From Patescibacteria group bacterium (GTDB lineage Bacteria > Patescibacteriota > WWE3 > UBA101185 > UBA10185): DNA of 64,000 bases. The number at the start of each line of letters is the position of its first letter. The stretch's first letter is position 1. The position numbers were made by a program, and so were the translations under genes. The notes beneath the pieces were generated by a model. That model searched no databases, was not told the DNA's origin, and worked only from the letters and a program-made list of their open reading frames with translations. Below, in pieces: positions 1 to 28,171 of this stretch. The DNA is taken from assembly GCA_041658075.1 (NCBI GenBank), contig JBBAAW010000001.1:24778-88777 (forward strand), given 5' to 3'.

Positions 1-26
1 AGAAAAAAATTCAGAACGCTAAAACA

Positions 27-563
27 GTGCTTTTTATGGGCAACATTCAACCTCATCAGGGTATTGACTTGATGATCGACTCATTTGCGGAGGCGAGAAA
101 GGCCTATCCAAATTTGACATTGGAGATAGTTGGGAGGGGTCCTTATACAGAATCCGCACAACAAAAAGTGTCCGATGCCGGTCTGTCATCTTGTGTGATA
201 TTTCATGGTTTTGTGGACGATGAAAACAAGGTGGACGAAATTTATAAAAGATCTTTAGTTGGCATGGCACTATATCACCCAGAACTCTCAAGTTTCACAA
301 AGCTTTCTGACCCTGGAAAGATTAAGGACTACCTTTCTGCTGGTCTTCCTGTAATTACAACAAATGTTTTCCCTTTCTCCAAGGAGCTGGCGGAAAGCGG
401 CGCCGGGATTGTAGTCTCTTACGAAAAGGGTTCGGTTGTAGATGCCTTGAAGAGGATTCTTAATCCAAATAATGCAGAGGTTTTCAGAGGGGCTGCTTTA
501 AAACTTGCAAATAAATATCTTTGGGACCTAGTTCTTGATAGAACATTAGAACAGACTAATTAG
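27..563 (+). CDS. Glycosyltransferase family 1 (GT4), C-terminal part; probably 5'-truncated by the window edge
   Basis: C-terminal GT1 signature (E..GKIKDYLSAGLPVITT). The ORF runs from the window start. Confidence 0.55.
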   Translation: MLFMGNIQPHQGIDLMIDSFAEARKAYPNLTLEIVGRGPYTESAQQKVSDAGLSSCVIFHGFVDDENKVDEIYKRSLVGMALYHPELSSFTKLSDPGKIKDYLSAGLPVITTNVFPFSKELAESGAGIVVSYEKGSVVDALKRILNPNNAEVFRGAALKLANKYLWDLVLDRTLEQTN

Positions 564-1798
564 ATCTTGTTTTGTATGTTTTCAAATACTTTGCGAAAGT
601 TTTCTCGATAGTCATACTTTTCTGCTGCATCTGTGACCCCCTTGAGTAGATTATTATACCTGTTGTTATCACTTAGAACATCTACTAATGTTTTAGCTAT
701 ATCAACTGAATCAAAATTAGCAAGAACTCCGGCACCAAGATCCCGGAGCTCGTCTCCAAGGGACGGTCCGCCGTTAGTCATAATAACAGGTAGGCCGGCC
801 CGTAAATACTCTTTGGGTTTAGACACATCGGCATACATGGAAACATTCTCCTTCTCTGGTTTATATAGAGCCAGCCCGATTTTGGCTTGTCTAATAATTT
901 TTATGGCATCCTCAGTTTTTTCAACGAACCCTTTAAAGTCCACATTACTTTCTATGTTTAACTGCTTAGCCATTTCCTGGTATTTTTTGACCGCTGTTTC
1001 ACTTCCGCCCACAAAAGTAATTTTGACATTGGGCATTGCTTTTACCATAAGTGCTAAGGCTTCTAAAGCCACGTCTACCCCGGCGTTTGCGTCCAGTCGT
1101 CCTATATAGGCCAAGGAGTTTTCATTTCTTACAGTTTTCAAATTTTCAAGCGACTCATTTTTGTCTATAGTAACCGCCGGAGCGACAAAATATGATTTTG
1201 CTGTCAGTCCATTTTCTAAATCCCACTCCCGTGTTTTTTGATTGGCATACCAAACTACATCATTTTTTATGCCAACCTTTCTAAGTAATAGTTGGATAAG
1301 CACAAAGATTTTATCCACGAGTTTTATTATTGCGTTATCAGAATTAAGGTAGTACGGCTTGATTTTACGATCAAAGATGGGCAGTACATCACCGCTCATA
1401 AATACAGTTTTATGTACTCGACCTAGAATCTTATAGATCCACATTACAAAAGACCCAAAGCTAGTCTCTCCGATGCCTAAATCAAAAACCCCTCTATTTC
1501 TAGTGAGCTTGCAGGCGGCGTATGTGTTAAGAATATACTGCAGCATAAACGCCATGTAGGAAGGGATCTTAAGTGAAGACCTAAATTTTAATGTAGTCTT
1601 TTGCCCCACTTCATCTAGGACAAACGCCTCATATTCAATCCCGCTTTTAGATAGCGACACAGAGGGGAGCTTTATAACGGTGAGTTTATAATCAGTGTTT
1701 TCGGCAAGATACTTTGATAGAAAATTTAGTGGCGGTGTTCCATAGAAATTGACTACATACAATATTCTTATGTTTGTATTTAGATTACTTTTTTGCAT
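560..1798 (-). CDS. Glycosyltransferase family 1 (GT4)
   Basis: 412-aa ORF with C-terminal GT1 motifs (EYLRAGLPVIMTNGGPSLGDEL). Overlaps its neighbours by 4 and 14 nt. Confidence 0.75.
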   Translation of the reverse strand: MQKSNLNTNIRILYVVNFYGTPPLNFLSKYLAENTDYKLTVIKLPSVSLSKSGIEYEAFVLDEVGQKTTLKFRSSLKIPSYMAFMLQYILNTYAACKLTRNRGVFDLGIGETSFGSFVMWIYKILGRVHKTVFMSGDVLPIFDRKIKPYYLNSDNAIIKLVDKIFVLIQLLLRKVGIKNDVVWYANQKTREWDLENGLTAKSYFVAPAVTIDKNESLENLKTVRNENSLAYIGRLDANAGVDVALEALALMVKAMPNVKITFVGGSETAVKKYQEMAKQLNIESNVDFKGFVEKTEDAIKIIRQAKIGLALYKPEKENVSMYADVSKPKEYLRAGLPVIMTNGGPSLGDELRDLGAGVLANFDSVDIAKTLVDVLSDNNRYNNLLKGVTDAAEKYDYRENFRKVFENIQNKI

Positions 1799-2396
1799 CC
1801 ATCACCATGTAAATTTCTGCCGCTCCACCTACTAAATAACACCAGAATCTTTCAAACAATTCGGGCGACAAATTAATTAGAAAGTTCACCCCCAAGATTA
1901 TTGGTTTTAGTATTAATCCTGCCAGTGGAGGCCAGTCGGGGGCAACAATATACTTCATGTACCATTCCTCATTAGGCCAGGTATAGAAATACCTGATTTT
2001 ACGTGTGACAATGTTGAATCGCGCCCCAGAATAGCCCCATTTTTTGTAATCCCGTTTGGCGTCGAAAATATCAAAGCAGTATATTGAATAAGCTCTTTTA
2101 TGTGTAATGTCGCCCCAGGCATATAAGCTGCTAAAATGCGGAACTCTAAGATATAATCGACCCTTAGGTTTAAGTATTCTGTAAACTTCTTCAATAACTC
2201 TTACTGGATCATCCAAGTGTTCTAATACATGGTACATGTGGATTTCGTCAGCATAATTGTCCGTAAAAGGATATGGTGTTTGGTTCAAATCATGAACTAT
2301 GTCCACGGTATCTTTTTTTATTATATCTACACCTATTGAGCCTGGGATTCTTGAATTATTACAACCTAGATTTAATATTACCTTGCTCATGTTCAC
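1785..2396 (-). CDS. Class I SAM-dependent methyltransferase (Methyltransf_11-like)
   Basis: ILNLGCNN...VDI motif I region and YHVLEHLDDP motif typical of type-11 methyltransferases. Confidence 0.6.
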   Translation of the reverse strand: MNMSKVILNLGCNNSRIPGSIGVDIIKKDTVDIVHDLNQTPYPFTDNYADEIHMYHVLEHLDDPVRVIEEVYRILKPKGRLYLRVPHFSSLYAWGDITHKRAYSIYCFDIFDAKRDYKKWGYSGARFNIVTRKIRYFYTWPNEEWYMKYIVAPDWPPLAGLILKPIILGVNFLINLSPELFERFWCYLVGGAAEIYMVMDAKK

Positions 2397-2400
2397 GATT

Positions 2401-3516
2401 CTATATCAAGCTAACCGACCTGTACAGGTTATTAAGTAATCTACTTTTATCGTTTTCCTTTGCCCAATTAAGCGCTTTATCTCTCATGTCAGAATAAAGG
2501 TTGGTGTCCGACATTAATCTTTCCAGACCTTCCGCAAGCTCTTTGACATTTTCGCAAAGTATTAACAAGCCTCTCTCGTAAGCCTCAACAGCTGTTGATA
2601 TATTTCTGTTGCACACAACGGGCAAACCCGATGCAGCGTATTCTCGAATTTTTAAAGAGTCGGCGTATTTTTCAAATGATTTTACGTTTTCGTACCAGGC
2701 TACACCGATATAAGATTTTGACATTATTTTTATGTTAGTTTGATAGTCAACAAGACCGTGTAATATTACTATATTTTCTAAATTACGCCGGCTTGCTTTT
2801 CCAATAACATTTAATTTTATTGACGGAAACTTTTCCTTTAACAACGACGTTAAATCCAGCAACATGTCGATTTCGGTGTCACTAATGTTAGATTTTGTAT
2901 AAACTAACTCGTAACGATCTTTCTCTTTTGGGTCTATACGCGCGGCATGTTCATAATCAGGGGAGTTTGGCAAGAATACTGCTCTATCCGGATTTTTAAC
3001 GCGTGGCTGTACAATTTCCCGCATGTTTTTGCTTACATATGTTACAAAAGATGCGTGAGCAATGGAGAAATAGTAAATTTTTCTATAGAAAGCATCAAGC
3101 AATTTTATTTCAAATCGACATTCTGAAAAATCTACGGCATGAAACTGCACAGGCGTTTTTCTCAGGAGACTAACGACATAAGCTGACACAAAGTTGAGTG
3201 GATCTACGGCAATAATTAGGTCAATTTTCCCATACGAGAGAGTTTTAAAAATATTAAACACTATTTCGATTGGCCACCTGATTACGCCGGAAAATGGGAT
3301 TTTGTACTCCCGGATTTGTTCTCCGTTTTTTATTCTTGAGCTGTGTACTCCGGCAAGCGGATGCTCAATAAATATTACTTCAAATCCTGTATTCTCGAGA
3401 AAGGAGGTAACATAGTCTATTCCTCCTGGTTTGATTCCCGTTGCCGTGAATATTCTGTGTACAAGGATAACTACTTTTTTTCTTGTTGTTGGTGTTGTCA
3501 TAATGTCTTGTTCCAA
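2401..3516 (-). CDS. Glycosyltransferase family 1 (GT4)
   Basis: C-terminal GT1 domain (KIREYAASGLPVVCNRN). Confidence 0.7.
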   Translation of the reverse strand: MEQDIMTTPTTRKKVVILVHRIFTATGIKPGGIDYVTSFLENTGFEVIFIEHPLAGVHSSRIKNGEQIREYKIPFSGVIRWPIEIVFNIFKTLSYGKIDLIIAVDPLNFVSAYVVSLLRKTPVQFHAVDFSECRFEIKLLDAFYRKIYYFSIAHASFVTYVSKNMREIVQPRVKNPDRAVFLPNSPDYEHAARIDPKEKDRYELVYTKSNISDTEIDMLLDLTSLLKEKFPSIKLNVIGKASRRNLENIVILHGLVDYQTNIKIMSKSYIGVAWYENVKSFEKYADSLKIREYAASGLPVVCNRNISTAVEAYERGLLILCENVKELAEGLERLMSDTNLYSDMRDKALNWAKENDKSRLLNNLYRSVSLI

Positions 3517-5270
3517 ACTTCGAGCAGGAACATTCTCCAGAGTAAATATTCCTTTTGCATTTTTATGGGTCCAAAACAGTTAAAATCTAATGAACTTTCA
3601 AGAGTTTTCCTTCCTACGATACCAGATGTTAATGAGTCCGCACCCAATATATAAGATCTTACTTTGTCGATATTGTTAGTTAATACATCAAACATTGGTA
3701 GCATAAATCCCCGCTTTTTTCTTGTGGTTACATCAGACGGAAGGTATTTTTCGGCTACTTTTCTCAATATGTATTTTTCATTTGAACCATTCATACTGAA
3801 TGTCTCACCTTTTATCTTGTATTTATTTGGAAGACTAAATGCGTACTCCACGATTCGATGGTCCAAATAGGGAACTCTAGCCTCAACGGATGCGGACATT
3901 GTTGCCTTGTCTACCTTCATAAGAAGGTGGTTTGGGAGCTGTATATTTACCTCAACCGAAGAGATGGTTCTAAAAACATCATCTTGCTTGTTTTGCTTGA
4001 AAATTGAATTCCAGTAGGATATGTACCTTGGTGTTTTAAAGGAGATATTTCTTGATATTGCATAGTAGTAGGCAGTCGCTTTTAAAGGTGTGGGTAGAAT
4101 AGAAAAAGGAAGCTTTGAAAGCCCAAACCACGAATAACCTCCAAATATTTCATCCGACCCCTCACCCAAAAGAATAACCGTGATGCCTTGCCGCTTTAAT
4201 TCTTTACAAAGTATCGCTGTAGATATCACCCCCCCGTCAAAAGTACCCATGTCATCAAATATCGGGGCGTAACTCTCAATATTATTGATTATGTTTTTAG
4301 TGTCAATAAACACTTCGTGGTGATCTGTTCCTAAATACTCAGCAACTTTTGCCGCATTCTGACTTTCATTGAATTTATGATCGAACCTCGCGGTATATGT
4401 TTTTATCTTATTACTCGTTGAGTTCTGGGCATACGCAGCTATTAATGACGAATCCAGTCCTCCAGACAACAGTATTCCCACAGGCACATCGGAGACCATG
4501 TGCTCCATAACAGATGTCTTTAGCAAGTCATCCAGTTTTTCCACTGCTTCTTCGAACGTATCTTTACTGTTTTCATTTATTCGAGGTAAGGACCAATACC
4601 TTCTATTAGTTATCTGTTTGGACTTTGCCTCCCATTTTAAATAACAACCGGGTTCCACCTTTTTGATATTTTTAAACAAAGTGTTTATTCGATCCGGTAG
4701 AAACATGAACCCGAGTAATAGTTCAACTTTGTCGCGATCAACATTTTCTTTCAGACTATAGTCAGGTACCGCTTTAAAAGCTTTTACTTCACTTGAAAAG
4801 AAAAGGCAACCCTCTTTATTTAAGTAATAGAGGGGTTTTATTCCAATTCTGTCCCTAACTAAAAACGCCGTCTCTTTTTTATAGTCGTATAAAGCAATGG
4901 CGAACATCCCCCTAAGTTTTTCAAAAACCCCCTCGCCCCATTCTCTATAACCATGCAGAATTACTTCCGTATCGGACTCGGATTTAAATTGATAGCCTTT
5001 TCCCGCCAGCTCTTTTTTAAGATCTTTAAAGTTATATATTTCCCCGTTTTGACAAACCGCAACCGATTTATCCATGTTTTGCATGGGCATTCTACCTTTT
5101 TCAGAAAGATCAATAATACTTAATCTTTTAGACCCCAAGGAGATTTTTCTATCAAAGTCTTCCAGAATACCCTGGTCGTCCGGTCCTCTATGGTGAATCA
5201 AGTCCAGCATATTTTGAGTAACGCCACGATACTTTTGATTCACATTTATTATTCCGGCAATTCCACACAT
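3498..5270 (-). CDS. asnB: Asparagine synthase (glutamine-hydrolysing)-family amidotransferase, likely amidating a sugar carboxylate
   Basis: N-terminal MCGIAGI (Cys2 nucleophile), SGGLDSS PP-loop, 590 aa. Lies inside a glycan locus. Confidence 0.85.
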   Translation of the reverse strand: MCGIAGIINVNQKYRGVTQNMLDLIHHRGPDDQGILEDFDRKISLGSKRLSIIDLSEKGRMPMQNMDKSVAVCQNGEIYNFKDLKKELAGKGYQFKSESDTEVILHGYREWGEGVFEKLRGMFAIALYDYKKETAFLVRDRIGIKPLYYLNKEGCLFFSSEVKAFKAVPDYSLKENVDRDKVELLLGFMFLPDRINTLFKNIKKVEPGCYLKWEAKSKQITNRRYWSLPRINENSKDTFEEAVEKLDDLLKTSVMEHMVSDVPVGILLSGGLDSSLIAAYAQNSTSNKIKTYTARFDHKFNESQNAAKVAEYLGTDHHEVFIDTKNIINNIESYAPIFDDMGTFDGGVISTAILCKELKRQGITVILLGEGSDEIFGGYSWFGLSKLPFSILPTPLKATAYYYAISRNISFKTPRYISYWNSIFKQNKQDDVFRTISSVEVNIQLPNHLLMKVDKATMSASVEARVPYLDHRIVEYAFSLPNKYKIKGETFSMNGSNEKYILRKVAEKYLPSDVTTRKKRGFMLPMFDVLTNNIDKVRSYILGADSLTSGIVGRKTLESSLDFNCFGPIKMQKEYLLWRMFLLEVWNKTL

Positions 5271-5271
5271 G

Positions 5272-6219
5272 TTATTTACTTGCCTCCACCTTTACCATTG
5301 GCCAGAACATGGGCAAGTTTTCTGCCATCCACGTAACAACATTTCTGACTATTGGATTCTTTATATATTCAAATACTAACCTTGTTTTAAAGTGGCTTAC
5401 AACGACTTTTCTAAAGCCCGCCTGTTTATGTAACCTTATTAAGTTCGACGAAGTGAAGGAAAGTTCATACCCAAACTTCATATGTCGCGATTTTAGCACT
5501 TTGATGTGAATGAATTCCGCTAGCTGTTTTAGCATCGGTACGTTTGGAATATTGCCCCACATTTGCCTATAAGTAAGCGATCCTAGATTTAGATAGGGAA
5601 CTGTATTAAAGGTTTTTCCATTGTCTTTTAGCACTCTATACATTTCGGAAACGGCCTTTGAAGTGTCCTTAAAGTGTTCTAGTACGCCACCGCCATAAAT
5701 TAGATCAACACACGAGCTGCTTAGGGGCATATACTTAATGTCGCCATGAATTAAAAGGTAGTTATCTATCCCTTCTTGATCCAGCAGTTTTTGGGCCAAC
5801 ATTAATGCTTCAAGCGAAAAATCCACCCCAATGACAAGCTTGACCTCCCGAGCTATTTGACTGGCAAAAAACATTGGTCCGCAACCGATTTCTAAGAAAA
5901 CCTTATTTTTGTTTAGGGTTTCATTTTCTGTTAACTGCGGATAGACATAGGAAAAATCCTCAGTGACGTACGCTTGAAGGCGCTCCTTTATATAGTGACT
6001 CTCTAGGTTTGAATAATATTGGTTCCATTTAGCTATTGAGAGGTCCAGATCCTTTTCTGCAGAGTTTAAAAAGCTATAAATTTTACCAATTTTTATATAC
6101 TTCTTTTCAATATTGCACTTGGCACATCTTAGGAATTCTTTTCCCTCGTCAAAAAGTTGACTATGACAGTATGGGCAGGCTATTAAAGTGTTCTTCACTG
6201 AAGTAGGCTTCTGTTCCAT
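5272..6219 (-). CDS. SAM-dependent methyltransferase with N-terminal zinc-ribbon (CxxC...CxxC)
   Basis: CPYCHS...CAKCN zinc ribbon. LEIGCGPMFFASQIAREV motif I, VIGVDFS motif II. Confidence 0.65.
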   Translation of the reverse strand: MEQKPTSVKNTLIACPYCHSQLFDEGKEFLRCAKCNIEKKYIKIGKIYSFLNSAEKDLDLSIAKWNQYYSNLESHYIKERLQAYVTEDFSYVYPQLTENETLNKNKVFLEIGCGPMFFASQIAREVKLVIGVDFSLEALMLAQKLLDQEGIDNYLLIHGDIKYMPLSSSCVDLIYGGGVLEHFKDTSKAVSEMYRVLKDNGKTFNTVPYLNLGSLTYRQMWGNIPNVPMLKQLAEFIHIKVLKSRHMKFGYELSFTSSNLIRLHKQAGFRKVVVSHFKTRLVFEYIKNPIVRNVVTWMAENLPMFWPMVKVEASK

Positions 6220-7265
6220 TCTATGGTTCTTTTTAAACCTTCTTTTAACGACACTTTGGGACTATACTTTAGCAGTTTCTCGGCCTTTTCAATGTTGGGG
6301 TGAACCCTGGAAGGTGCGTCCACAACGTGGCTTTTATCTGAGTTTTCCTTTACACTCACACCCTCCTTTATTCCGCACAGCTCGTGAATTATTTCTGCTA
6401 GATGTTTTATAGTAACTTCCTCTTTATTATTGGCCACATTAACCGGATCCGCATTAAGGTTTGAAAACAGCAAACGGAAAAATAAAACCGTGGCATCTGA
6501 GACATAACAATAGCACCTTGTATCCAGTCCCTTGTTGAGCATTTGAATGGGTTTCTTTTCGAGTCCGGACTTCATAAATTCGGCCATGACTCTTCTATCT
6601 CCCACCTTTAGCCCAGGACCGTATACAATAAATGGTCTGGCAATCTTAATGGGGACACCGAATTTTTTAAAGTAGATATTACATAATGTTTCGCTTAATC
6701 TTTTAGATTCGGCGTAGCAGGCACGAGGCGCTAAGGGGGAAACGTTTCCGTTATATGTTTCTGGTGTTGGAATATTTTCTGGTGTTGGATTTCCGTAAAT
6801 TTCACCGGAACTCATGTAAAGGATACTTGAAACCTTATGCTCTTTAGAGTATTCCAGAATCCATCTAATACCCTTAACATTAACATCCAGGGTTCCAAGA
6901 GGGTCGCTCTCAAAAAAAGCTGGTGCAGATCTACCGGCGGCATGAACTATATAATCAACTTTCCTCTTTGTTTCGTAAGGATTTATAGAATCGTGCTTCA
7001 CAAACATTACATCTTTTCTTCCCAATAGATAACCCAATCTCCCGTTTTTATCCATTCCTGACCTTTGCAAACCTATGACTTTAGCAGGCTCTTTTTTTGG
7101 ATTTTTGTCGTTAAAATATAAGATGGTTTCAACCAGGTAGCTGGCGAGTAATCCCTCCGGACCTGTAATCAGAAAGGTCTTACCAAGAATCTTTTCTTTT
7201 TCACTTTTTAACTCGTTGTAAATTTCTTCTAAATCTTTGCGAATTATTTCTGACGCTTTTTGCAT
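6195..7265 (-). CDS. NAD-dependent epimerase/dehydratase (extended SDR) acting on a nucleotide sugar
   Basis: Rossmann fold LITGPEGLLASYL. Catalytic Y..ESK-like motif (YAESKRLSE). Confidence 0.75.
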   Translation of the reverse strand: MQKASEIIRKDLEEIYNELKSEKEKILGKTFLITGPEGLLASYLVETILYFNDKNPKKEPAKVIGLQRSGMDKNGRLGYLLGRKDVMFVKHDSINPYETKRKVDYIVHAAGRSAPAFFESDPLGTLDVNVKGIRWILEYSKEHKVSSILYMSSGEIYGNPTPENIPTPETYNGNVSPLAPRACYAESKRLSETLCNIYFKKFGVPIKIARPFIVYGPGLKVGDRRVMAEFMKSGLEKKPIQMLNKGLDTRCYCYVSDATVLFFRLLFSNLNADPVNVANNKEEVTIKHLAEIIHELCGIKEGVSVKENSDKSHVVDAPSRVHPNIEKAEKLLKYSPKVSLKEGLKRTIEWNRSLLQ

Positions 7266-8179
7266 TTTTGTAGTACCTTTCTGTAAATTGATTCTCCGTC
7301 CAGTCCAAGGTATTGATACAGCTCCTGCTTGTGACCGTAAATGTCAAGGTACTTATCGTCTATACCAATACGAGTAAGCATGGGCTTTGTACCGGCTGGT
7401 AATTCGGCAACCAATTCGGCTATCACAGACCCCAGCCCGCCAATTACGCTATGTTCTTCAACGGTGAATAGATATTTTGCCTTACTGATGATGTTTATAA
7501 TCTCCTTATTCAGAGGCTTTATAGTGTTTATACCCACTACTGTGGGATCTATTCCTTTCTTTGTTAATCTCTCTTCGGCCAATAAGCTTTCTTTTACTGT
7601 CTCTCCAAAGGAGATAATTACCACTTGACTGTTTCCCCTGCGAGCGATTCTATAATCTGCGAATTTGTTATTGTTTGTTTGGTTTTCGGTTTGTTCTGGC
7701 AAGTTCAGCGTCAGCCTAATATAAGTTGGTCCGTCTATTCGAGCGGCTTCTCTAAGTGTCTTTTCGGTTCCCTCTGCATTTTCCGGGGTAAATATTCGCA
7801 TTCCGGGAATTGTTCTCATGATGGCAATATCCTCAATTGAATGGTGGGTGGCACCCAGGGAACTGTAGGAGACTCCGCTTCCTATTCCTACAATTTTTAC
7901 ATTTGCGCTATGGCAGCCAACCCCCACGCGTATTTGGTCAAAGACTCTGGATGTAATAAACGGCGTTATAGTATATGCAAATGGTTTCCACCCATCAAGA
8001 GCCATTCCTGCCGCCGCGCTGATCATTGCAGCCTCGGAAATTCCCACATTAAAAAATCTGTCCGGGTATTTATCCTTAATCTTTCTAAGAAGAAAGGCAC
8101 CGATATCACCCAGGAACAATACCACTTTGGGATCTTCATCAAACAACTTCTCTATTGTTTTAACAAAGGTTTTTCTCAT
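7244..8179 (-). CDS. Transketolase, C-terminal (pyrimidine-binding + C-terminal) subunit of a split transketolase
   Basis: FNVGISEAAMISAAAGMALDGWKPFAYTITPF signature. The ORF track start at 8305 is a TTG extension; the internal ATG at 8179 gives a 20-nt overlap with the upstream subunit gene. Confidence 0.8.
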   Translation of the reverse strand: MRKTFVKTIEKLFDEDPKVVLFLGDIGAFLLRKIKDKYPDRFFNVGISEAAMISAAAGMALDGWKPFAYTITPFITSRVFDQIRVGVGCHSANVKIVGIGSGVSYSSLGATHHSIEDIAIMRTIPGMRIFTPENAEGTEKTLREAARIDGPTYIRLTLNLPEQTENQTNNNKFADYRIARRGNSQVVIISFGETVKESLLAEERLTKKGIDPTVVGINTIKPLNKEIINIISKAKYLFTVEEHSVIGGLGSVIAELVAELPAGTKPMLTRIGIDDKYLDIYGHKQELYQYLGLDGESIYRKVLQKCKKRQK

Positions 8180-9029
8180 AGTGTTTTTCTTGTAGGTCAA
8201 GCTCTTCCATTGCTTTAAGATATTCTTCTTCCGTTGGAATTCCGGTATGCCATTTGTTATCGTTTTCCATAAACGGTATACCTTTTCCTTTAACTGTGTG
8301 GGCAATCAAAGCTGTAGGTTTACCTTTGATTAACGGACATTTAATTAGTGCGCCATAAATTTTGTTAATATCATGTCCTTCCACATCTAGAGTTTCCCAA
8401 CCAAAAGCCGACCATTTTAACTTTAGGTCATGTGGATCTTGCACGGCAACAGCACTCCCACTTGATTGCATTTCGTTATTGTCCAATATAACTACCAGAT
8501 TATCCAACTTTTGGTGAGAGGCTATAGCTGCCGCTTCCCATGTTGACCCCTCGTTGCATTCTCCATCTCCAACCACGCAAAATATCTTGCGGTGCGACTT
8601 TTCTAATTTTGCCGCCATGGCAAACCCCACACCCATGGGAAATCCATGTCCTAAAGAACCGGTGGATACTTCAACGCCTGGAATTTTATTATGGTCAGGG
8701 TGGCCGCCAAGGATTCCATTTCTTGTGCAAAACTTTTCAAGCTCATCCATAGGGAAAAATCTCCGTCTCGCCAACACAGAATACAAAGATACACAGCCGT
8801 GCCCTTTACTAAGAATAAATCTATCCCTTTCTTTATTTGATAAATCCCGCTTATCTATCTTGAGAATTTTTGAATAAAGTACTACCAGCATTTCTACTAT
8901 AGACATAGCCGCCCCAATATGTCCGTCTTTAGATCCGTAGATCATTCTTATTACATCTCGTCTTACTTGAATGGCCAGCTTCTTGAGCTTTGTTATTTCC
9001 GCTTTATTCATGTTCATATTCTGTTTCAT
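8160..9029 (-). CDS. Transketolase, N-terminal (ThDP-binding) subunit of a split transketolase
   Basis: GHIGAAMSIVEML...SKGHG...GSLGHGFPMGVGFA thiamine-diphosphate binding motifs. Confidence 0.85.
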   Translation of the reverse strand: MKQNMNMNKAEITKLKKLAIQVRRDVIRMIYGSKDGHIGAAMSIVEMLVVLYSKILKIDKRDLSNKERDRFILSKGHGCVSLYSVLARRRFFPMDELEKFCTRNGILGGHPDHNKIPGVEVSTGSLGHGFPMGVGFAMAAKLEKSHRKIFCVVGDGECNEGSTWEAAAIASHQKLDNLVVILDNNEMQSSGSAVAVQDPHDLKLKWSAFGWETLDVEGHDINKIYGALIKCPLIKGKPTALIAHTVKGKGIPFMENDNKWHTGIPTEEEYLKAMEELDLQEKHYEKNLC

Positions 9030-10195
9030 TTTTTTAACAAGCTACAAAGCAACTCAAGCTCGCCTTTTGTTAGTTCAGGGTTATTAGCAATGTAAAAGCC
9101 ATTTTCGTGAACTAATTCGCTTACGGGTGTTTCGTATGTTTTTGAAATGTATTTTTTAAAGAAGGGCTGTCTTGTTATATTTCCCGCGATAACAGGTCTA
9201 ATTTCAATGTCGTGCTTTATGAACCTATCGCGGTATTTTCTATACAAAACTTTAGTCTTAAAAATTAAGGGATAGGTAAAGTTAGAAACCAGCGACATAT
9301 AAGGTACATTGTAATGATATAAGTGATTGTTGCTATTGGCTGTCTTTTCGTATAGTTTATAGTTACTTTCTCTTTTGCCAACAACCTCATCCCAATAATT
9401 TATCTGTACATTTCCAATAAAACCCTGGATATCTGTAGGTCTAACATTATAGGCTAGGTCGTAAAAAGTATATTTGGACACAAACGGATCAATTTTGTGT
9501 TTTTTTATTAGATCGGTGCGCGCTTTCTCGGGAATGTTTCTGTCCCACCCATGGGCCCTCACCATACAAAGCATGTGGTAAAATTCCTCATCATCCGTAC
9601 ACACCATGCCCCCTTCAATTGTGGACAAGTGGTGTCCAACATAGGTTGAGAAAGTTGAAGCAAACCCAAAGTTTCCTAATAATGTACTGCCGATTTTTGA
9701 ACCTAGTGCTTCGCAATTGTCCTCTATAAGAATTATTTTGTTTTCCTTACAGAACGACGCTATTTTATTTAGTTCTCCGCCAAACCCCAAAACATTAGTA
9801 ACAAAAAGAGCCTTAAACTTATCTTTACTATAGGAGGCTTTGATGGTCTTAACGGAAATGTTTAAACTCTCAAGTTCGCAGTCAACGGGGATAGGTTCAA
9901 GACCCAGCTGTATGAGGGGCATTACATTTGTAGCCCATGTTATTGTTGAAAACCCAACTTTATCCCCCTTTGATATTTTACCCGTATTTAACAATGCTTG
10001 AATGAGTGCTAAATTTGCGGCACTTCCGTTAGAGACAAACAACGCGTATTTTCTACCTTGTTTTTCTGCAAACAGCCTTTCAAACTTTCTACACTCATCG
10101 TACATACTTAATATATCGGCCTTTTTGATAAACTCGGCCAGTTTTTTCTTTGTTTCTTTCTCTTTGTAAAATGTTGAACGAATTAGCTTTAGCAT
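9026..10195 (-). CDS. DegT/DnrJ/EryC1/StrS-family PLP-dependent nucleotide-sugar aminotransferase
   Basis: 389 aa, fold-type I aminotransferase pattern. Sits in an operon with gmd. Confidence 0.75.
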   Translation of the reverse strand: MLKLIRSTFYKEKETKKKLAEFIKKADILSMYDECRKFERLFAEKQGRKYALFVSNGSAANLALIQALLNTGKISKGDKVGFSTITWATNVMPLIQLGLEPIPVDCELESLNISVKTIKASYSKDKFKALFVTNVLGFGGELNKIASFCKENKIILIEDNCEALGSKIGSTLLGNFGFASTFSTYVGHHLSTIEGGMVCTDDEEFYHMLCMVRAHGWDRNIPEKARTDLIKKHKIDPFVSKYTFYDLAYNVRPTDIQGFIGNVQINYWDEVVGKRESNYKLYEKTANSNNHLYHYNVPYMSLVSNFTYPLIFKTKVLYRKYRDRFIKHDIEIRPVIAGNITRQPFFKKYISKTYETPVSELVHENGFYIANNPELTKGELELLCSLLKK

Positions 10196-10198
10196 AAG

Positions 10199-11254
10199 TT
10201 AGTAGTTGAGGTATCCGTTGTTTAACCCTTCGTTTTTGATATCAAACTCGACCATTTCTTTGACCAGTTCTTTAAAGTTGTGTCTAGGTTTCCAACCAAG
10301 GATTTTTCTGGCCTTTGAAGGGTCACCAAGCAAAAATTCAACTTCGGAAGGTCTAAAGTATTGTGGGTCGATTTTAACATATGTCTTCTTTGTTTTTGTA
10401 TCATAACCTATTTCTTTTAGCCCCTTGCCGGTCCATTTTATTTTGATTCCAATATGTTCAAACGCCAGCTCCACAAACTCCTTTACGGTGTGGGTTTCTC
10501 CTGTGGCTACAATAAAGTCATCCGGTTCTTTGTGTTGCATCATTAGATACATCGCTTCCACATAATCCTTTGCGTGTCCCCAATCTCGAGACGTATGGAT
10601 GTTACCCAGATACAATATCTTTTGTTTTTTATGGAAAATGTCAGCTACAGCTCTGGTGATTTTTCTAGTCACAAAAGTTCTACCTCTCCTTGGCGACTCG
10701 TGGTTAAAAAGTATTCCATTGCAAGCAAAAGTCCCGTAACTATCGCGGTAGTTTTTAACCGTCCAATAAGAAAAAACCTTTGATATGGCATAGGGAGATT
10801 GGGGGTTAAAGGGGGTAGTTTCCTTTTGAGGAGTTTCAAGAACTTTTCCAAACATTTCGCTTGAGGAAGCTTGATAAAATTTGGTTTGTGGACTTGTGTG
10901 CCTAACGGCCTGTAACAACCTTAGCGTTCCCAGAGCATCTACATCGCAGGTGTATTCGGGAATATTAAAGCTTACGCCAACGTGACTCTGTGCTCCTAGA
11001 TTGTATATCTCGGTTGGTTTGAGTCGGGCGACAAGTTCTATAAGACTGGATGAATCTGAAAGATCGCCGTAATGAAGCTGCACATCCCCTGAAGAGAAGT
11101 TCTTCTCAATTATATGGTCTATTCTGGATGAATTAAAAAGGCTGGTTCTTCTACGCAAACCATGGACCTGATACCCTTTTTGTAAGAGTAGCTCCGCCAG
11201 GTATGATCCGTCCTGTCCAGTTATTCCTGTAATAAAAGCTCGTTTTTGTGTCAT
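10199..11254 (-). CDS. gmd: GDP-mannose 4,6-dehydratase
   Basis: N-terminus [33 protein letters not shown] is the canonical GMD signature. 351 aa. Confidence 0.9.
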
Positions 11255-11347
11255 AAGCTAATCTTAAAAGCGACTTGTAAATAGTATAGTAATTCATGCA
11301 ATAACGCAACACTAAGTGAAAGACTTTCTTGCTTAGGAAGTGTAAGA

Positions 11348-12292
11348 CTAAACGTTACTAGAGGGCTGTTTACTAAGATGACCTTTGGGGTTACTTTCAT
11401 CAACTAGATACCGGGCAAATTGCATAACCTCTACCAGTATGGTTTCCCTCTGCATACGACGCTTTTCGATAAAATCTCCAGCTAGCGTTTCCTCCATTGC
11501 TTTTTGCTTCGGCGGATAGGAAAAGGGAATATCCACACCAACAACTTTCCTATCAGAATGAAGTGCAGCTAATACAGGAAAAAAGTCAAAATTTGTGTAT
11601 CGTTCCGGATTGGCTCCTCCTCGCCTTTTTGCCCATTCCGGATCATCGACTTGATATCGCTCCATAAACATCCTTACTAGTTCTGGATCGTTTCTGAATG
11701 CTTTCACTCCAAAAAACCAATCGAATTGAGTGTCCGTGGGGAGGATCCCCAGATGTTGAGCAATCCTGTTGCACCACCTATTTCCAAACTCTTCTGATTC
11801 CACCTGAAAGCTTGGATATGTTGTCCTGAATAGGGACGGGTCGCGTCCGGCCATTACTATATCGGCTTCCCCTCTGGCTATGGGATCCACCAATTGCGAT
11901 ATGTAAGGTATTACTTCAGTTTTTTCTGCTTGAATCAACAGAAGGACTCTCGGATTCAGATCAACGGACTTTTCCAGCGCTTCTCTTTTAGCCTCTACCA
12001 TGCCAGGCTTTTCCTGTGCGAGAACTTTTACTCCCATACGCTCTAAAGTTTCAAGGTATTCTTTTGAGCTTCCACCATCTACAACTACAACTTGGTAGTC
12101 GCCTTCTACTGCTTGTCTGAATGTATCAATGGAAGCGTTTCCGCGCGCGGAGTCGGCATTAGTTATATCCGTTTGACTTGATTGCCAATTTTTGTAGAAC
12201 GTGGTGGCAAAAACAACTACATCATGGGGGTTTAACTTCTCATAACTTTGTTGAGACTCATTTCCTACGTTAGTTAACTGAGTTGCTAGCAT
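11348..12292 (-). CDS. Hypothetical protein, possibly a GT-A-like Rossmann fold (VVVVDGGSS)
   Basis: 314-aa ORF with no recognisable family. GC content is intermediate (~46%) compared with its neighbours. Confidence 0.35.
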   Translation of the reverse strand: MLATQLTNVGNESQQSYEKLNPHDVVVFATTFYKNWQSSQTDITNADSARGNASIDTFRQAVEGDYQVVVVDGGSSKEYLETLERMGVKVLAQEKPGMVEAKREALEKSVDLNPRVLLLIQAEKTEVIPYISQLVDPIARGEADIVMAGRDPSLFRTTYPSFQVESEEFGNRWCNRIAQHLGILPTDTQFDWFFGVKAFRNDPELVRMFMERYQVDDPEWAKRRGGANPERYTNFDFFPVLAALHSDRKVVGVDIPFSYPPKQKAMEETLAGDFIEKRRMQRETILVEVMQFARYLVDESNPKGHLSKQPSSNV

Positions 12293-12335
12293 GCACGCAT
12301 TTTAGTATGAAATATAGCGGAAAACAAGAACAAAG

Positions 12336-13150
12336 TTATTTCTCTAGAATAATCCGATGAGATAGATAGCGTCCAAAGACCTGGGCCGCACCCATATCGG
12401 GAATGTAAACCTTTACCCTATTTTCATCAGAGTCGGGCAAGTCCTCAAGGCGCAGGGTTACACCTTGCTCGTCTAGGAACTTCGCCACTTGCTCATCTTT
12501 CACAAGCGCTTCGTAATGGGGATCATAAAATTCCCAGCTTTTAGTTGTTTCGTTGTACCTCATTTTGGGAGAGGTAGGACCTATAAATGCTTTCCCGCCA
12601 TGCTTTAGCACACGGCATATATCCATGATTCCTTCCTGCCAAATTTCTTTATTATGAATGTGCTCGGCTACATGGAATACTAATATGGTGTCAAAAGTTT
12701 CGTCTACAAAAGGTAAATCGTTCAAGAGCCCCGCCACCCCCATTAGTTTTGTTTGGTATTTACGAGCGGCTGATATTATTGCCGTGTTTCTGTATTTCTG
12801 AAACATAAAATCAGGACTTAACTCAAACACTTTTGCCCCGCAGTCTCTTTCTCTCAATTCTGTGGCTATCTTGACTTCAGAGCCGGCACCAAGATCCAAT
12901 ATAACTTTATCGTTTAAATCACTTTCGCTGAATCCAAGTGCATTTTGATATTGTTCTAGGGTTCGTCCGCCTTCAGGCACGGTCACATTTTTGTGGTCTA
13001 TGGTTCCAGCCTCCCAACCCTTCCCTCCCTTTATCACCTCATGCACGGCATCTTCTGAGGGTTCGCTCGTACTGTTTTTACCGGCAAAAGTATCTCCGAT
13101 TCTTCTTTCGAATTCAACAATGCTTTCAACAAATTTCATGTTCATTTGAT
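12336..13150 (-). CDS. Class I SAM-dependent methyltransferase
   Basis: ILDLGAGSEV motif I, FHVAEHI motif. Start taken at the internal ATG (MNMKF), because the upstream extension overlaps the divergent promoter region. Confidence 0.6.
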
Positions 13151-13209
13151 AATAAAGGAAAAGTCTAATTTTCTCAATTTGTATGCACATTATTACAACC
13201 CTATAGTAT

Positions 13210-13238
13210 TTGACGATATAGACTTTTTGGCGTAAAAT
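13210..13238 (+). promoter_or_regulatory. Sigma70-type promoter TTGACG-17nt-TAAAAT, followed by SD AGAGGTG, driving the GC-rich ORF
   Basis: Near-consensus -35 and -10 with a 17-nt spacer, read directly from the sequence. SD lies 5 nt before the ATG at 13289. Confidence 0.5.
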
Positions 13239-13288
13239 AGCCGTATCTAGCAATCCAGCTAGTCTTGAAAACAAAATAGAGGTGAAAA

Positions 13289-14032
13289 ATGGACGCGTAT
13301 CTGCGTGCACTTGAGCAACAGTTGGAGCCGCTGTACCACATTCCCCATGTCGTTGGGGGGCACGAGATCAGTCATGTGAGGATGATGTTGGCGCGAGCTA
13401 AAGGGGTGCTTGAGGCGATCAGCCGATACTACCCCGGCCTCGACCCGGCAGACGATGGAACTTTCACAGAGCTTCTTGCCGCTATTTGGTGGCACAACGT
13501 CGACCGGGTTCGGGAGTGGAAAGTAGATGTACAGAAAGCGGGGGGTGACGAGCCTTATGTGCTGATGCAGCTCGCTGACAGTCCTTTCGAAAACGACGCG
13601 CGTGCGCGCATCGCGTACGCGGTGGCAAACCACTCTCAGAGGGAGTGTCAAATCGGTGAACATCCCTGGTTGCTGGTTGCCTTGATGGACCTGGACAAGA
13701 TGGTCAGGCTATTCCCGCTCAATGTCATCGAAGGGGCACAACACCAGCTCGAGGATAACCCGATATACGATCCGGAACCGGAACACCTCTTCGACTACAA
13801 GAAGGCACGCCGAAGCTTATGGCGCGCATTCATGTGGAACTTGGAGTGGGTGCCCATGCTTTCTTGTGACGAGGTGCGTGCGTTGATTGAGAAAGCACAC
13901 TTCCGTGCGTTCATCGACTTCCTGCGGGCTCTGGGGGCTGACATCGCGGAGCGTGAGGGAGTGCCGAACGGAGTCGAAGGGCAGATTGAACTAGCTCTGG
14001 GTGAATATTACCAGGAGTTTGCCTGCTCGTGA
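13289..14032 (+). CDS. Hypothetical protein encoded in a GC-rich (~58%) island
   Basis: 247-aa ORF with strong promoter and SD. Compositionally foreign. No family recognised (His-rich N-terminus HVVGGHEISH). Confidence 0.5.
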   Translation: MDAYLRALEQQLEPLYHIPHVVGGHEISHVRMMLARAKGVLEAISRYYPGLDPADDGTFTELLAAIWWHNVDRVREWKVDVQKAGGDEPYVLMQLADSPFENDARARIAYAVANHSQRECQIGEHPWLLVALMDLDKMVRLFPLNVIEGAQHQLEDNPIYDPEPEHLFDYKKARRSLWRAFMWNLEWVPMLSCDEVRALIEKAHFRAFIDFLRALGADIAEREGVPNGVEGQIELALGEYYQEFACS

Positions 14033-14145
14033 ACTTGCCTAACCGGTGGCAAGGGGGGCTACCTACAACAAAAGCATAATCTTTGTTGCAAGGGGCCTCC
14101 AATTCTTTTCATTGGATTGACAGAAGCAGGCATTAAAGCCAAAAT

Positions 14146-17100
14146 GTGAGGATAAAATCGCCTGATAGCAAGAACATGACAAAGGTGCCCGGTAAAATTC
14201 TCATCTTTTTTCAAGCCTACAAAAGTTTCTTATCCAGACATCCCGTTGTTTCATTAATACTAAATATCCTCTGGCCGCTTCTTATCTTTCTGTGGGTTGT
14301 TTTTATCAACCGTTTTCCACAGGGCTACATTTATGTTAGTGGAGATTTTGCTCAGCCAATAAACATAGAAAACATTTTCAAAAACCTTTTTTACACTTGG
14401 GGTAATGGTATATCAGCTCCCAGCGAGGGAGGATTCTTCTCCTGGTTTGCGGCTTCTCCGTATTATTTTATCTTCTATCTTCTGCCCCACAAACTGGGTC
14501 TTAACGACACTAATATTTTGTCGTACGTACTTTTTCTTTTCTTATCACTTTCCTACTTTTCCTTCTTGTTGGCCTTAAAACTTATCTTCAAAGAAAAACT
14601 TACTGTTTTTACCAGAGTTTTTTCGCTTATCTATTCAATAAACCTCACAACTATATATTTCTACACTTACACGTGGGGTTTTTCACACCAAGTTTTTTTA
14701 TATATAACCCTTCCTTTATTGGGTGCGGTATTCTACCGTTACATTTCTAAACCTTCCCTTAATAATACGTTAGCCTTTCTTGTCTTGCTCTTTTTGTCTA
14801 TCCCCGGTTTTACTAATGTAGCGTTTTTCGTTTCTTTATGTCTATTTTTTTGTCTATTTTTGGCTTTTTCTATTCTGTTAAAAGTCGTTGTTATAAATAG
14901 GAAACTTGTTTTATCATTATTAATTCTTTCGATACTTTCTCTGCTGACTCTATCAGTTTGGGTTGCGCCTACTTACATGGCTTTACGGGGCGAATTATCG
15001 AGTTTGGCCGGTGGAATGTTTAACTTTAATCTATGGCTCAGAACCCAGTCGGCGGATATCTTGTCCATCCTGATAGGTTTACCAGGTTATGGAGGGTTCT
15101 TTCCGTTTTCTCACAACCGTTGGTTTCTTTATCTGTTTCCGTTTATTCCAATACTTCTACTTGTAGTGTTTTTAATAAAGTCAAAGAATGAACCCGCCGT
15201 TTTGCGTAAAAGACTGTCTTTAGTCTTGCTTTCAATCTGTGTTATTTTTATGTTTCTAATAAAAAAAGGGCAAGGTCCATTTGGCGAACTCACTTTAAAG
15301 GTTTTTTCCGTTATTCCTCTTTTATCTATATTTAGAAGCTACGAAAAAATCGCTCTTTTTATGCCTTTTTTGATGCTTACTGCCATTTACGGTCTCATAC
15401 CCTTAAAATTTACCGCTAACAAATATATCTACGTTGTTTTAGTGGCGACTTTGTTTGCAGGAGCTCCATTTTTAATGGGTGGCATTCAAACTAAATACAG
15501 CATAACTTTGGGCGACGATCCTACAAAGGACTACACAACTTCAAAGTATTCTGGTTTAGTTAAAATTCCTTCCGACTACTATAAAATCGCCGATATTGTG
15601 AATGCAGATACTCAGGATTCAAAGGTTCAGGATCTGCCATTCAGTGTGTTGAACACACCTGCGTGGGTAAATTACATAAAATGGAAATTAATTGGATTTA
15701 ACGTTACACAGAATCTTTTGGTAAAGCCCACCATTGGACAAAATGCCTCACAGCTAAACTTATTTAACTGGTCGCCCACTGCAGAATTTAATGGGACTCG
15801 TTTAAATCCAGAGTGGTATATAAAACTGCTTTCATACTTTAACGTTTCCCACCTTATTTACCATAAAGGTGTGGCCGATCAGTTTATCTCTCAGTCACTG
15901 CCTAAAGTTCAGGAATTAGAAAAGGAGGGTTTAATATCTAATCTATATGATGGAGAGTCTGCCTCTCTTTACAAGGTGGACGATAAATATGTTCTGCCTA
16001 GTTTTTACGTTCCCAAAGAAACATTGTTTGTGTATGACGAATTAAGATTTTTTCCGTACCTACTCCTTGTTCCGGATTACGACAAACAAACAAACTACCT
16101 TTTTAAAGAGGTTAACAAACCGACTTTGGATGAACAAAATACGAAGACAGTTGTAATATTGGAGGAACTCATCTCTTTGGATACTCTTATGGATAACACA
16201 TGGAGTCCAGCGTGGGTATGGCCCCCACAGAATGACTCCAAGGATCAAGTTGACATTCAATTGCTAAATATTGTACGGGTGGCGTTTGAGATGAAGTCGC
16301 AAAACCTATACCATAACCAACCACTGCAGGGAGAAATAGCCTTCGCACTGCAAGGATTAAAGTTGGCCGTGGAAGAAGAACTAAAGACGCGTACCCAGGT
16401 TACAGAACGTAATAAAATTATCGAAAAAGTTCTTAAGAATCTTATAATGGTTAATGTTGAGTATGGCGACCAGGGAGATGTCCACAACTTTTTTCTTTCT
16501 CTTCTGTATAATTTTGACTCTTGGGCGTTAGTAAAAGGCTGCATGTTCAGCTGCTACCCTATGGAAATTCCGGAGACCGGGGATTACGAAATCCTTGTTG
16601 AAAACTTAGACGATGCCGCCAAAAACGCAAGAATCTATTTTAAAGATAGAAACACGGGCGCTACTTTGTCCGGAGAAGCTACTCAAAACCTAAGTAAATC
16701 GAATAACGACTATGTAAATTACGGAGTTATATCCTTTACTAAGGGTAACTCTTTGTTTTTAGATTTTTACCATCGGTCGCAGATATTTCTCAAGATGTCG
16801 GAGTGGAAAAAGGAGACTGTGGACGGAAAAAACAGTATAAGCAGAGAGCTGTTAAATTTAGAACCAAATCGGAGATATCAGGTTTCCATTAAATACAATG
16901 GAGATTTAGATTCAGTTTCTTTTACGATTGTTGAGGATAGCTCTGTTCCAAATGCATCGGTACTACAGTTGGGAGAGATCTTAAAAAAGACGGGGCAGGA
17001 CCCATTCTTCTTTGCAGGAAATGTCGGTGGAACAAGCAAGCTTTATCTTTACAACAAGGACGGAAAGGATATTAACTCTTTAGATATTGGCGATATAAGG

Positions 17101-17896: not shown

Positions 17897-17990
17897 TTAC
17901 TAAATTTGTGAGTCTTATACCCACTTGCCGTTTTCCATGAAAACCCTGACAAATCTGTATGATATGCCAGAATGTTTAACAACATCGACA

Positions 17991-20679: not shown

Positions 20680-20764
20680 GAAATCGATTATAGCAGATTT
20701 GAAATAGGGGTTTGGTACCACTCCGCAGACGCGACAAATTATTTTGTCCGCGGAGTGGCCCGTT

Positions 20765-28168: not shown

Positions 28169-28171
28169 AGT

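Follow-up and report, generated by a model that had tools for sequence, protein, structure and literature searches.

We analysed a 64,000-nucleotide (nt) stretch of DNA from a Patescibacteria group bacterium of the WWE3 lineage (contig JBBAAW010000001.1, positions 24,778 to 88,777), hereafter called the window, whose minus strand carries a nucleotide-sugar operon containing a transketolase encoded by two genes. Our preferred reading, to which we assign a probability of about one half, is that this operon makes a 3,6-dideoxyhexose carried on GDP and branched at C-4, and that this sugar is installed in a surface glycan. In the proposed pathway, Gmd, whose family assignment is direct, would catalyse the step established for that family, from GDP-mannose to GDP-4-keto-6-deoxymannose. 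As its family and its catalytic His suggest, a ColD-type enzyme would then remove the 3-OH and keep the ketone, giving GDP-4-keto-3,6-dideoxymannose. The transketolase subunits TktN and TktC would form a two-carbon (C2) carbanion bound to thiamine diphosphate (ThDP) and add it to the C-4 ketone, leaving a tertiary alcohol with an acyl branch. The C2 unit, perhaps from hydroxypyruvate or a ketose, would most likely be dihydroxyethyl (glycolaldehyde), because all the donor-holding transketolase histidines are kept. SDR-A, an extended short-chain dehydrogenase/reductase (SDR), would, in the manner of YerF, reduce the carbonyl of the branch and so give a 1,2-dihydroxyethyl side chain, after which the methyltransferases (MT) MT1 and MT2 would O-methylate the product and two GT4-family glycosyltransferases (GT) would transfer the sugars.

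The first operon gene, gmd (10199 to 11254, minus strand, 351 amino acids [aa]), encodes a GDP-mannose 4,6-dehydratase which scored 545 bits with the equivalog model TIGR01472 (cut-off 415) and matched PF16363 at 4.4e-148 in the Pfam/NCBIfam comparison. It is followed by colD (9026 to 10195, minus strand, 389 aa; PF01041, 2.5e-52), a member of the DegT family. With respect to solved structures, the closest relatives of the DegT protein were four ColD/WbdK entries (6e-60), followed by the CDP-sugar 3-dehydrase E1 (2e-34) and by perosamine synthases (about 4e-19). In addition, its G-H188-H aligned with S-H188-H of ColD, with His in place of the Schiff-base Lys of aminotransferases, a replacement which is the defining feature of sugar 3-dehydratases (PMC8987622). 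E1 and SpnQ also bear a four-Cys [2Fe-2S] motif, which ColD lacks (PMC8987622); compared by eye with that description, the DegT protein showed neither the four-Cys nor the C-x-C motif, and its seven Cys are scattered. By these features it is a ColD-type GDP-4-keto-6-deoxymannose 3-dehydratase, with the activity predicted from family and motif. The preliminary description of this DNA had expected Gmd and the DegT protein to yield a perosamine-like GDP-4-amino-4,6-dideoxyhexose; His188 and the ranking of the solved relatives led us to reject an aminotransferase of that type. Given that gmd lies 3 nt upstream of colD, the expected product is GDP-4-keto-3,6-dideoxymannose. The 4-ketone survives ColD whereas an aminotransferase would consume it, and therefore the idea of branching at this carbon is strengthened. 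The acceptor left by the ColD-type step would be of the 3,6-dideoxy-4-keto type on which yersiniose biosynthesis also relies.

The ThDP-binding half of the transketolase, TktN, is encoded at 8160 to 9029 (minus strand, 289 aa; PF00456, 1.6e-49), and the half with the pyrimidine-binding and C-terminal domains, TktC, at 7244 to 8179 (minus strand, 311 aa; PF02779 and PF02780); the tktC open reading frame (ORF) spans 7244 to 8305, with the ATG at 8179 as the likeliest start codon. The two proteins matched the N chain (6yak, 2.4e-72) and the C chain (6yaj, 3e-44) of the split transketolase of Carboxydothermus hydrogenoformans. In human numbering, TktN keeps the GDG (D155)/Asn185 motif for ThDP and Mg2+ and the equivalents of His37, His77, His110 and His258, and has Cys for the canonical Arg101. 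TktC keeps the equivalents of the cofactor-activating Glu366, of His428 and of R318; it has lost H416 (to G), D424 (to L) and R474 (to L), F389 is replaced by I, and position 421, I or V in canonical enzymes, is Tyr. Its signature reads R318 / A or F345 / E366 / I389 / G416 / L424 / H428 / L474, against R S E F H D H R in canonical transketolases. In the yeast and human structures, R318, S345, H416 and R474 are the residues which hold the substrate phosphate, and Asp424 is the one which reads the 2-OH of the acceptor. Three of the four in the phosphate set are lost, R318 being the one kept, and Asp424 is Leu in the window; members of the non-canonical clade described below have L, M, A, N or E there. 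TPP_enzyme_C gave a weak, partial match to the pair, which does not have the single-chain, acetolactate-synthase-like architecture of YerE. These residues indicate a pair that is probably catalytically equipped but not a pentose-phosphate enzyme.

When one genome per GTDB species was scanned, 80 loci were obtained with at most 44% identity to the window transketolase, and 83 loci were scored in total, including those fetched before that scan. Gly416 was present and Asp424 absent in 63 of the 83, the commonest signature being R-N-E-I-F-G-L-H-K. The canonical signature (R-S/A/C-E-F/Y-F-H-D-H-R) was found in 15, among them loci of Clostridia, Geomonas, Bathyarchaeota and Peregrinibacteria (L067); all 15 keep H, D and R at 416, 424 and 474, with Ser, Ala or Cys at 345. 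The phylogenetic comparison with housekeeping transketolases suggested in the preliminary description was made by neighbour-joining, rooted on human transketolase: 64 non-canonical sequences (the scored loci and the window) were monophyletic, with every canonical sequence outside. The window pair grouped with two loci (L001 and L002), and then with a Daviesbacteria locus and a locus from a gammaproteobacterial metagenome-assembled genome (MAG). Among the best matches in a metagenome protein collection, 119 of 120 showed the non-canonical signature. The clade spans at least a dozen phyla and includes Bradyrhizobium, Herbaspirillum, Paenibacillus, Verrucomicrobiota, Sulfurovum and many bacteria of the candidate phyla radiation (CPR).

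Clade members whose neighbours were examined all sit in nucleotide-sugar loci. In 27 of 52 loci, the gene immediately upstream of tktN encodes an extended SDR; on the downstream side, zinc alcohol dehydrogenases (10), methyltransferases (9), DegT proteins (4) and SDRs (4) are among the neighbours. The genes of Sulfurovum riftiae encode, in this order, sugar-1-phosphate nucleotidyltransferase, CDP-glucose 4,6-dehydratase (496 bits, cut-off 278), TktN, TktC and SDR, and on the Paenibacillus cellulosilyticus plasmid NZ_CP054609, where the transketolase genes all bear generic names, the order is rfbF, rfbG, methyltransferase, an SDR::TktN fusion, TktC, TylF-type methyltransferase and glycosyltransferase. 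Apart from the window and L001, five loci of Verrucomicrobiia, Gammaproteobacteria, Paenibacillus and Parcubacteria have a His-type DegT 3-dehydratase within 10 kb of a non-canonical pair. This recurring pattern, from dehydratase(s) through the transketolase pair to a reductase-like enzyme, appears to follow the logic of yersiniose biosynthesis. A search of plasmid proteins gave 494 records, mostly generically named split transketolases, and the two inspected were both in sugar-tailoring contexts; in the two annotated records examined, clade members were labelled only 'transketolase family protein' or 'transketolase C-terminal domain-containing protein'. SDR::TktN fusions of 635 aa occur in a JGI contig (3300072015) and on the Paenibacillus plasmid (L090, 7097-9004). 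The fused SDR domain of the latter had no NCBIfam match at 1e-15 and resembled SDR-A with E = 8e-4 over just 80 residues; it was rejected as a homologue of SDR-A, and thus this fusion is directly uninformative on SDR-A.

A cassette of GT10, TktN, TktC and SDR was also observed in a gammaproteobacterial MAG (L008, 780-4672) and in two metagenome contigs (L092, 7104-10971; L093, 7104-10979), with the gene of GT10, a fucosyltransferase family, directly upstream of the other three in each. An Fcl-family gene stands directly after tktC in a Daviesbacteria locus (L005) and directly before the E1alpha gene in the operon neighbouring ours (L087). The adjoining gmd and colD and these GT10 and Fcl-family neighbours are evidence for a GDP-linked substrate. 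The preliminary description had also seen in the split transketolase something other than a pentose-phosphate enzyme, and had proposed that it transfers a two-carbon unit onto a 4-keto intermediate. The first point is upheld by the loss of three of the four phosphate-binding residues and of the acceptor Asp and by the separate clade. Since the pair is not of the pentose-phosphate type and its clade, where neighbours were examined, sits in nucleotide-sugar loci, the second gains support as the most sensible role.

SDR-A (6195 to 7265, minus strand, 356 aa) is related to UDP-xylose synthase (UXS), human UXS1 being its closest solved relative (5e-45). It keeps the Tyr-x-x-x-Lys motif (ACYAESK, aligned with ACYDEGK of UXS), has SSGE for the STSE of UXS and has Ile for Asn176; the Ser of the T-S-E motif and Asn176 are presumably of functional weight in the sugar pocket of UXS and ArnA. 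The SDRs associated with ThDP enzymes carry SSGE or SSGA, with Ile, Val, His or Leu at the Asn176 position. Orthologues of SDR-A that follow the transketolase pairs in L008 and L093 are 57-58% identical to it, the transketolase subunits there being 40-50% identical to ours. SDR-B, encoded beside the neighbouring E1 pair, is 44% identical to SDR-A and has SSGA, the Glu being lost. As an internal control for this comparison, L093 holds at 191-2655, 8 kb from its transketolase-SDR cassette, a more distant SDR paralogue with the full UXS motifs (STSE, Asn), whose gene directly precedes that of a UDP-glucose dehydrogenase and is coupled to it in translation; the contrast with it weakens the case for SDR-A as a canonical UXS decarboxylase. 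Because SSGE and Ile differ from STSE and Asn176, we read SDR-A as a protein that has probably diverged from the UXS family and altered its sugar pocket; to reduce the branched product is a likelier role for it than to decarboxylate a uronate. SDR-A was also considered as a ColC/Fcl enzyme and rejected, with 42.6 bits for the GDPFucSynFcl model.

A second operon, in the order methyltransferase (Methyltransf_24), Fcl/ColC-like SDR, a protein like the E1alpha of pyruvate dehydrogenase (PDH), an E1beta-like protein, SDR-B and GT4, converges on the transketolase operon. It lies mostly outside the window and was read in L003 (17638-20957) and L087 (164-6135); the window holds the C-terminal 178 codons of its last gene, the GT4 (27 to 563, plus strand; 372 aa). 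The Fcl/ColC-like protein reached 474 bits with GDPFucSynFcl (cut-off 500); the window itself has no ColC gene of the Fcl family, and this one lies just outside. No E2 or E3 genes were seen within the retrieved stretch of the convergent operon. L001 and the JGI contig likewise have such an operon next to the transketolase genes. The transketolase pair shares just 25% identity with the E1beta next door, and this over a part of the length. PDH-E1-like pairs are known acetyl-branching enzymes of actinomycete deoxysugars (PMC12247030), and the convergent operon resembles the acetyl-branching modules of actinomycete antibiotics, set in the glycan locus of a CPR bacterium. There are thus two ThDP enzymes, each with its own paralogous SDR and its own GT, and therefore two different branches are suggested, one acetyl and the other probably glycolyl. 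The adjoining E1 module is, together with the retained transketolase histidines, our main reason for taking glycolaldehyde to be the likelier unit transferred by the transketolase pair.

With respect to known systems, the function proposed here is closest to the yersiniose pathway and the enzyme family to the split transketolases of miharamycin and amipurimycin biosynthesis. The yersiniose A pathway of Yersinia pseudotuberculosis follows the same order, with a 4,6-dehydratase, a His-type 3-dehydratase dependent on pyridoxamine or pyridoxal phosphate, a ThDP enzyme that adds two carbons at C-4, and lastly a reductase (PMC12247030, PMC8987622). It differs in using CDP-glucose 4,6-dehydratase, E1/E3, YerE and YerF, whereas our operon is GDP-based and has a dehydratase of the ColD type, without Fe-S cluster or E3. 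YerE is a single-chain, acetolactate-synthase-like flavoprotein which transfers acetaldehyde, whereas the operon has a two-subunit enzyme of the transketolase family with probably glycolaldehyde as its unit, so that the likeness between them would be functional only. The miharamycin and amipurimycin systems of Streptomyces also place a two-gene transketolase in a sugar-tailoring cluster, and these enzymes have been proposed to branch a keto sugar with a hydroxyacetyl group, none of them having been tested in vitro; the 13 transketolase candidates known to the same review are all from Streptomycetes (PMC12247030). They belong to actinomycete clusters for nucleoside antibiotics and ours to a Patescibacteria surface glycan, the likeness noted here being one of gene arrangement. 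The PDH-E1-like heterodimers (alpha-KADH2: AviB1/B2, EvdU5/EvdS3 and those of aldgamycin and kibdelomycin) are likewise two-subunit ThDP enzymes acting on nucleoside diphosphate (NDP)-4-keto sugars, with a branch that is often reduced; a pair of exactly that type is the one in the convergent operon, whereas the operon's own pair belongs to the transketolase family. The colitose pathway (Gmd, ColD, ColC) shares the adjacent Gmd and the His188-bearing ColD, and a possible counterpart of its third enzyme is encoded by the Fcl/ColC-family gene of the neighbouring operon; unlike it, our operon couples the translation of colD to that of a ThDP-enzyme gene and not of colC, and its SDR is related to UXS and not to Fcl. 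The split transketolase of C. hydrogenoformans shares the two-chain architecture and the cofactor-binding and catalytic His and Glu residues, whereas the substrate channel in the operon is remodelled (S345A/F, F389I, H416G, I/V421Y, D424L, R474L).

Several points weigh against the branched-hexose pathway. The asnB-type gene is conserved in the block and its product looks active, yet the proposed sugar offers no carboxylate, and a UDP-glucose dehydrogenase is encoded in the same 45-kb glycan region. The Fcl/ColC-like gene next door could complete an ordinary colitose pathway, which would leave another substrate for the transketolase pair. The closest characterised relative of SDR-A is a decarboxylase and not a ketoreductase, and the Glu of T-S-E is kept. 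Position 345 of TktC depends on the alignment, being Ala in one and Phe in another; the neighbour-joining tree that sets the clade apart carries no support values; and many GT10-TktN-TktC-SDR cassettes among the closest relatives have no adjoining dehydratase. As to the chemistry, no transketolase-family enzyme has yet been shown to act in vitro with a ketone acceptor (2025 review PMC12247030).

The closeness of SDR-A to UXS and the precedent of EvdS6 raise an alternative in which the acceptor is a 4-keto-pentose. EvdS6, a UXS-family decarboxylase, supplies UDP-4-keto-xylose, the proposed acceptor of the PDH-E1-like branching enzyme in everninomicin (PMC10338323). Likewise, SDR-A, acting as an EvdS6- or ArnA-like enzyme, would oxidatively decarboxylate a nucleotide-uronic acid made by the dehydrogenase at 41269-42633, the transketolase pair would branch C-4 to give a eurekanate-like sugar, and Gmd, ColD and the Fcl/ColC-like protein would separately make GDP-colitose. 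Every enzyme would then have precedented chemistry. UXS1 is the best solved relative of SDR-A, the window holds a UDP-glucose 6-dehydrogenase-like gene, the TktN-TktC-SDR-A core is kept in L008 and L093 even where no dehydratase adjoins, and the paralogous SDR beside the neighbouring E1alpha/beta pair mirrors the proposed EvdS6 and EvdU5/EvdS3 route to eurekanate (PMC10338323). Against this, the ThDP-associated SDRs lack the Ser of T-S-E and the Asn176 equivalent, SDR-B lacks the Glu as well, and a genuine UXS-type paralogue stands beside the UDP-glucose dehydrogenase in L093. S. riftiae already has a source of keto sugar in the CDP-glucose 4,6-dehydratase encoded directly upstream of a transketolase pair and a relative of SDR-A; the GT10 and Fcl-like neighbours suggest chemistry on GDP-6-deoxyhexoses, and the dehydrogenase of the window is 30 kb from the operon. 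We consider a pentose acceptor unlikely, though it deserves to be kept in view.

It is slightly less likely again that the unit transferred is acetaldehyde from pyruvate, as in DXS or YerE, which would give a 4-C-acetyl and then a 4-C-(1-hydroxyethyl) sugar, that is, a GDP-linked analogue of yersiniose. The ThDP sugar-branching enzymes that are characterised or genetically proven all use 2-oxo acid donors, namely pyruvate for YerE, KbDH and the aldgamycin enzyme and longer 2-oxo acids for ErwE (PMC12247030), and TktC scores well (154 bits) on the DXS model TIGR00204. However, both halves score higher as transketolase than as DXS (280 against 66 bits for TktN and 182 against 154 for TktC), the four transketolase histidines of the N half are all kept, and a second acetyl-transferring enzyme would be redundant beside a PDH-E1-type pair with its own SDR and GT.

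We regard as improbable a locus that simply makes GDP-L-colitose through Gmd, ColD and either SDR-A or the neighbouring Fcl/ColC-like protein, with the transketolase pair in an unrelated reaction such as the making or cleavage of a small ketose or hydroxy-ketone. Gmd and ColD do catalyse the two opening steps of the known colitose pathway, and the Fcl-family protein of the convergent operon falls just under the cut-off of its model; but SDR-A is not Fcl/ColC-like, tktN and tktC lie between colD and the SDR gene with overlapping frames in an order kept in three diverged contigs, and the non-canonical clade travels across phyla with NDP-sugar 4,6-dehydratases and sugar-tailoring genes, where neighbours were examined. 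Finally, split transketolases are normal in many anaerobes and in some CPR bacteria, and the Peregrinibacteria locus L067 has the canonical signature, but that ours should be a housekeeping pentose-phosphate enzyme placed by chance in a glycan locus is very improbable and was rejected on active-site residues and clade membership: the equivalents of H416, D424, R474 and S345 are G, L, L and A or F, and the clade, which has no canonical member, includes Bradyrhizobium, Herbaspirillum and Paenibacillus, which also carry ordinary transketolases.

Beyond the core genes, the operon of the branched-hexose pathway continues with five more. MT1 (5272 to 6198, minus strand, 308 aa; PF08241, 1.6e-18) is a class I S-adenosylmethionine (SAM) methyltransferase with a Cys-rich, Trm112-like segment at its N-terminus and an alternative ATG at 6219; its orthologue in L093, 42% identical, carries PF03966 (Trm112p). 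The AsnB-type glutamine amidotransferase (3498 to 5270, minus strand, 590 aa; GATase_7 and Asn_synthase) scored 469 bits with TIGR01536 (cut-off 267) and begins with MCGIAG. It probably does not act on the proposed branched sugar; as a weak suggestion, it may amidate a carboxylate elsewhere in the glycan, for example that of a uronic acid to which the UDP-glucose dehydrogenase (41269-42633) would lead. A GT4-family glycosyltransferase (2401 to 3501, minus strand, 366 aa; PF00534 and PF13439), the small methyltransferase MT2 (1785 to 2390, minus strand, 201 aa; PF08241, 2.2e-10) and a second GT4-family enzyme (560 to 1798, minus strand, 412 aa; PF00534, 1.7e-17) complete the set.

In the window sequence, the stops and starts of the ten minus-strand genes from 11254 to 560 overlap or nearly abut. 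There is a gap of 3 nt between gmd and colD and of 1 nt between the MT1 and asnB genes, and overlaps of 4 nt (colD/tktN), 20 nt (tktN/tktC), 22 nt (tktC/SDR-A) and 4 nt (SDR-A/MT1). The minus strand showed no terminator-like hairpin across positions 1-14200; a promoter scan was uninformative (34 sites, 33 expected). The overlapping packing continues past 3498 and no terminator-like site was seen to interrupt it; therefore we delimit a ten-gene operon. The preliminary description had listed eight genes, back to back and co-transcribed, in a block from 3498 to 11254. The tight packing holds (overlaps of 4-22 nt, gaps of 1-3 nt), co-transcription is supported by the overlapping genes and by the lack of an internal terminator-like site, and the block is real, with seven of the eight genes in place, all on the minus strand. 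Its left border was wrong, given that GT4, MT2 and GT4 carry the operon to 560, and of the two methyltransferases claimed only MT1 lies inside the block, the others being downstream (1785-2390) and upstream (12336-13190). Directly upstream of gmd there is a 314-aa protein (11348-12292, minus strand) with a weak AglJ-like GT match (39.7 bits), followed by the methyltransferase at 12336-13190 on the same strand; both genes are kept in the near-identical L003 and L004 and are absent from L001, and therefore they are probably outside the conserved block.

Positions 1-18200 of the window correspond to 18200-1 of a 92,968-nt ENA metagenome contig (L003) at 99.995% identity. LysS, encoded at 46325-47803, has a 100% identical counterpart in an NCBI 'Patescibacteria group bacterium' MAG, and its nearest named relatives, about 61% identical, belong to WWE3. 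At greater distance, the ten genes gmd-colD-tktN-tktC-SDR-MT-asnB-GT-MT-GT recur in Logan contig L001 (TktC 65% identical) and in the JGI contig (TktC 51% identical, with an SDR domain fused to TktN), MT1 and AsnB being kept within the block in both. In L001 the identities to the window were 66% for AsnB, 58% for the GT4 at 2401-3501, 82% for MT2 and 70% for the GT4 at 560-1798. The gmd of L001 (3628-4116) was called with only 162 aa and duplicated domain matches, which may be due to a frameshift or an assembly error.

The operon belongs to a glycan locus that takes up the left 45 kb or so of the window and encodes GT2 and GT4 glycosyltransferases, GT-C enzymes of the PMT_2 type, flippases, a B12-binding radical SAM protein and, at 41269-42633, a UDP-glucose 6-dehydrogenase-like protein. 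It must be noted that such a surface-glycan region is unusually large for a small-genome CPR bacterium. There are four PMT_2-type GT-C paralogues and a DUF2079 membrane protein (26462-30992, 33263-35401 and 36091-37620), accompanied by two flippase-like genes and a gene for an LPG_synthase_TM protein. The B12-binding radical SAM protein (19084-20847, minus strand) is HpnJ-like at 170 bits, far below the cut-off, has a homologue two genes upstream of gmd in the JGI contig, and may be a C-methylase or a rearranging enzyme for a sugar. A 1125-aa ORF (14146-17523, plus strand) and a 247-aa ORF (13289-14032, plus strand), divergent from the sugar genes, have no Pfam match; Pfam-blank proteins of similar size to the former occur beside the transketolase operon in L001 (1078 aa) and near the transketolase pair in L005 (1155 aa). 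A 576-aa ORF (58997-60727, plus strand) matched aldehyde:ferredoxin oxidoreductase at 1.5e-39 with its first 230 residues or so, covering the N-terminal third of the model only.

YerE-like and PDH-E1-like enzymes are known to branch nucleotide keto-sugars by means of ThDP; for the transketolase family such a reaction has only been proposed, and this for a few Streptomyces antibiotic clusters (PMC12247030). Tentatively, and with less confidence than we place in the pathway itself, we suggest that the non-canonical two-subunit transketolases are a large, phylum-spanning and unstudied class which transfers glycolaldehyde onto NDP-4-keto-deoxysugars, here to give a GDP-3,6-dideoxy-4-C-glycolyl hexose (then 1,2-dihydroxyethyl and O-methylated) beside an acetyl-branching module of the E1 type. 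We found no report of a sugar of this kind in bacterial surface glycans and, beyond the 2025 review, nothing relevant published on genes of the transketolase family in polysaccharide loci of bacteria; the latter absence is weak evidence, because the searchable literature is incomplete. The operon places a transketolase relative after two enzymes which make the accessible GDP-4-keto-3,6-dideoxymannose, and a clean biochemical test is therefore possible. If the function were confirmed, a large family would be re-annotated, new branched sugars would be predicted in many glycans, and a biocatalytic route to hydroxy-functionalised tertiary alcohols would be available. As this operon shows, genome-reduced CPR bacteria invest in elaborate surface-sugar chemistry.

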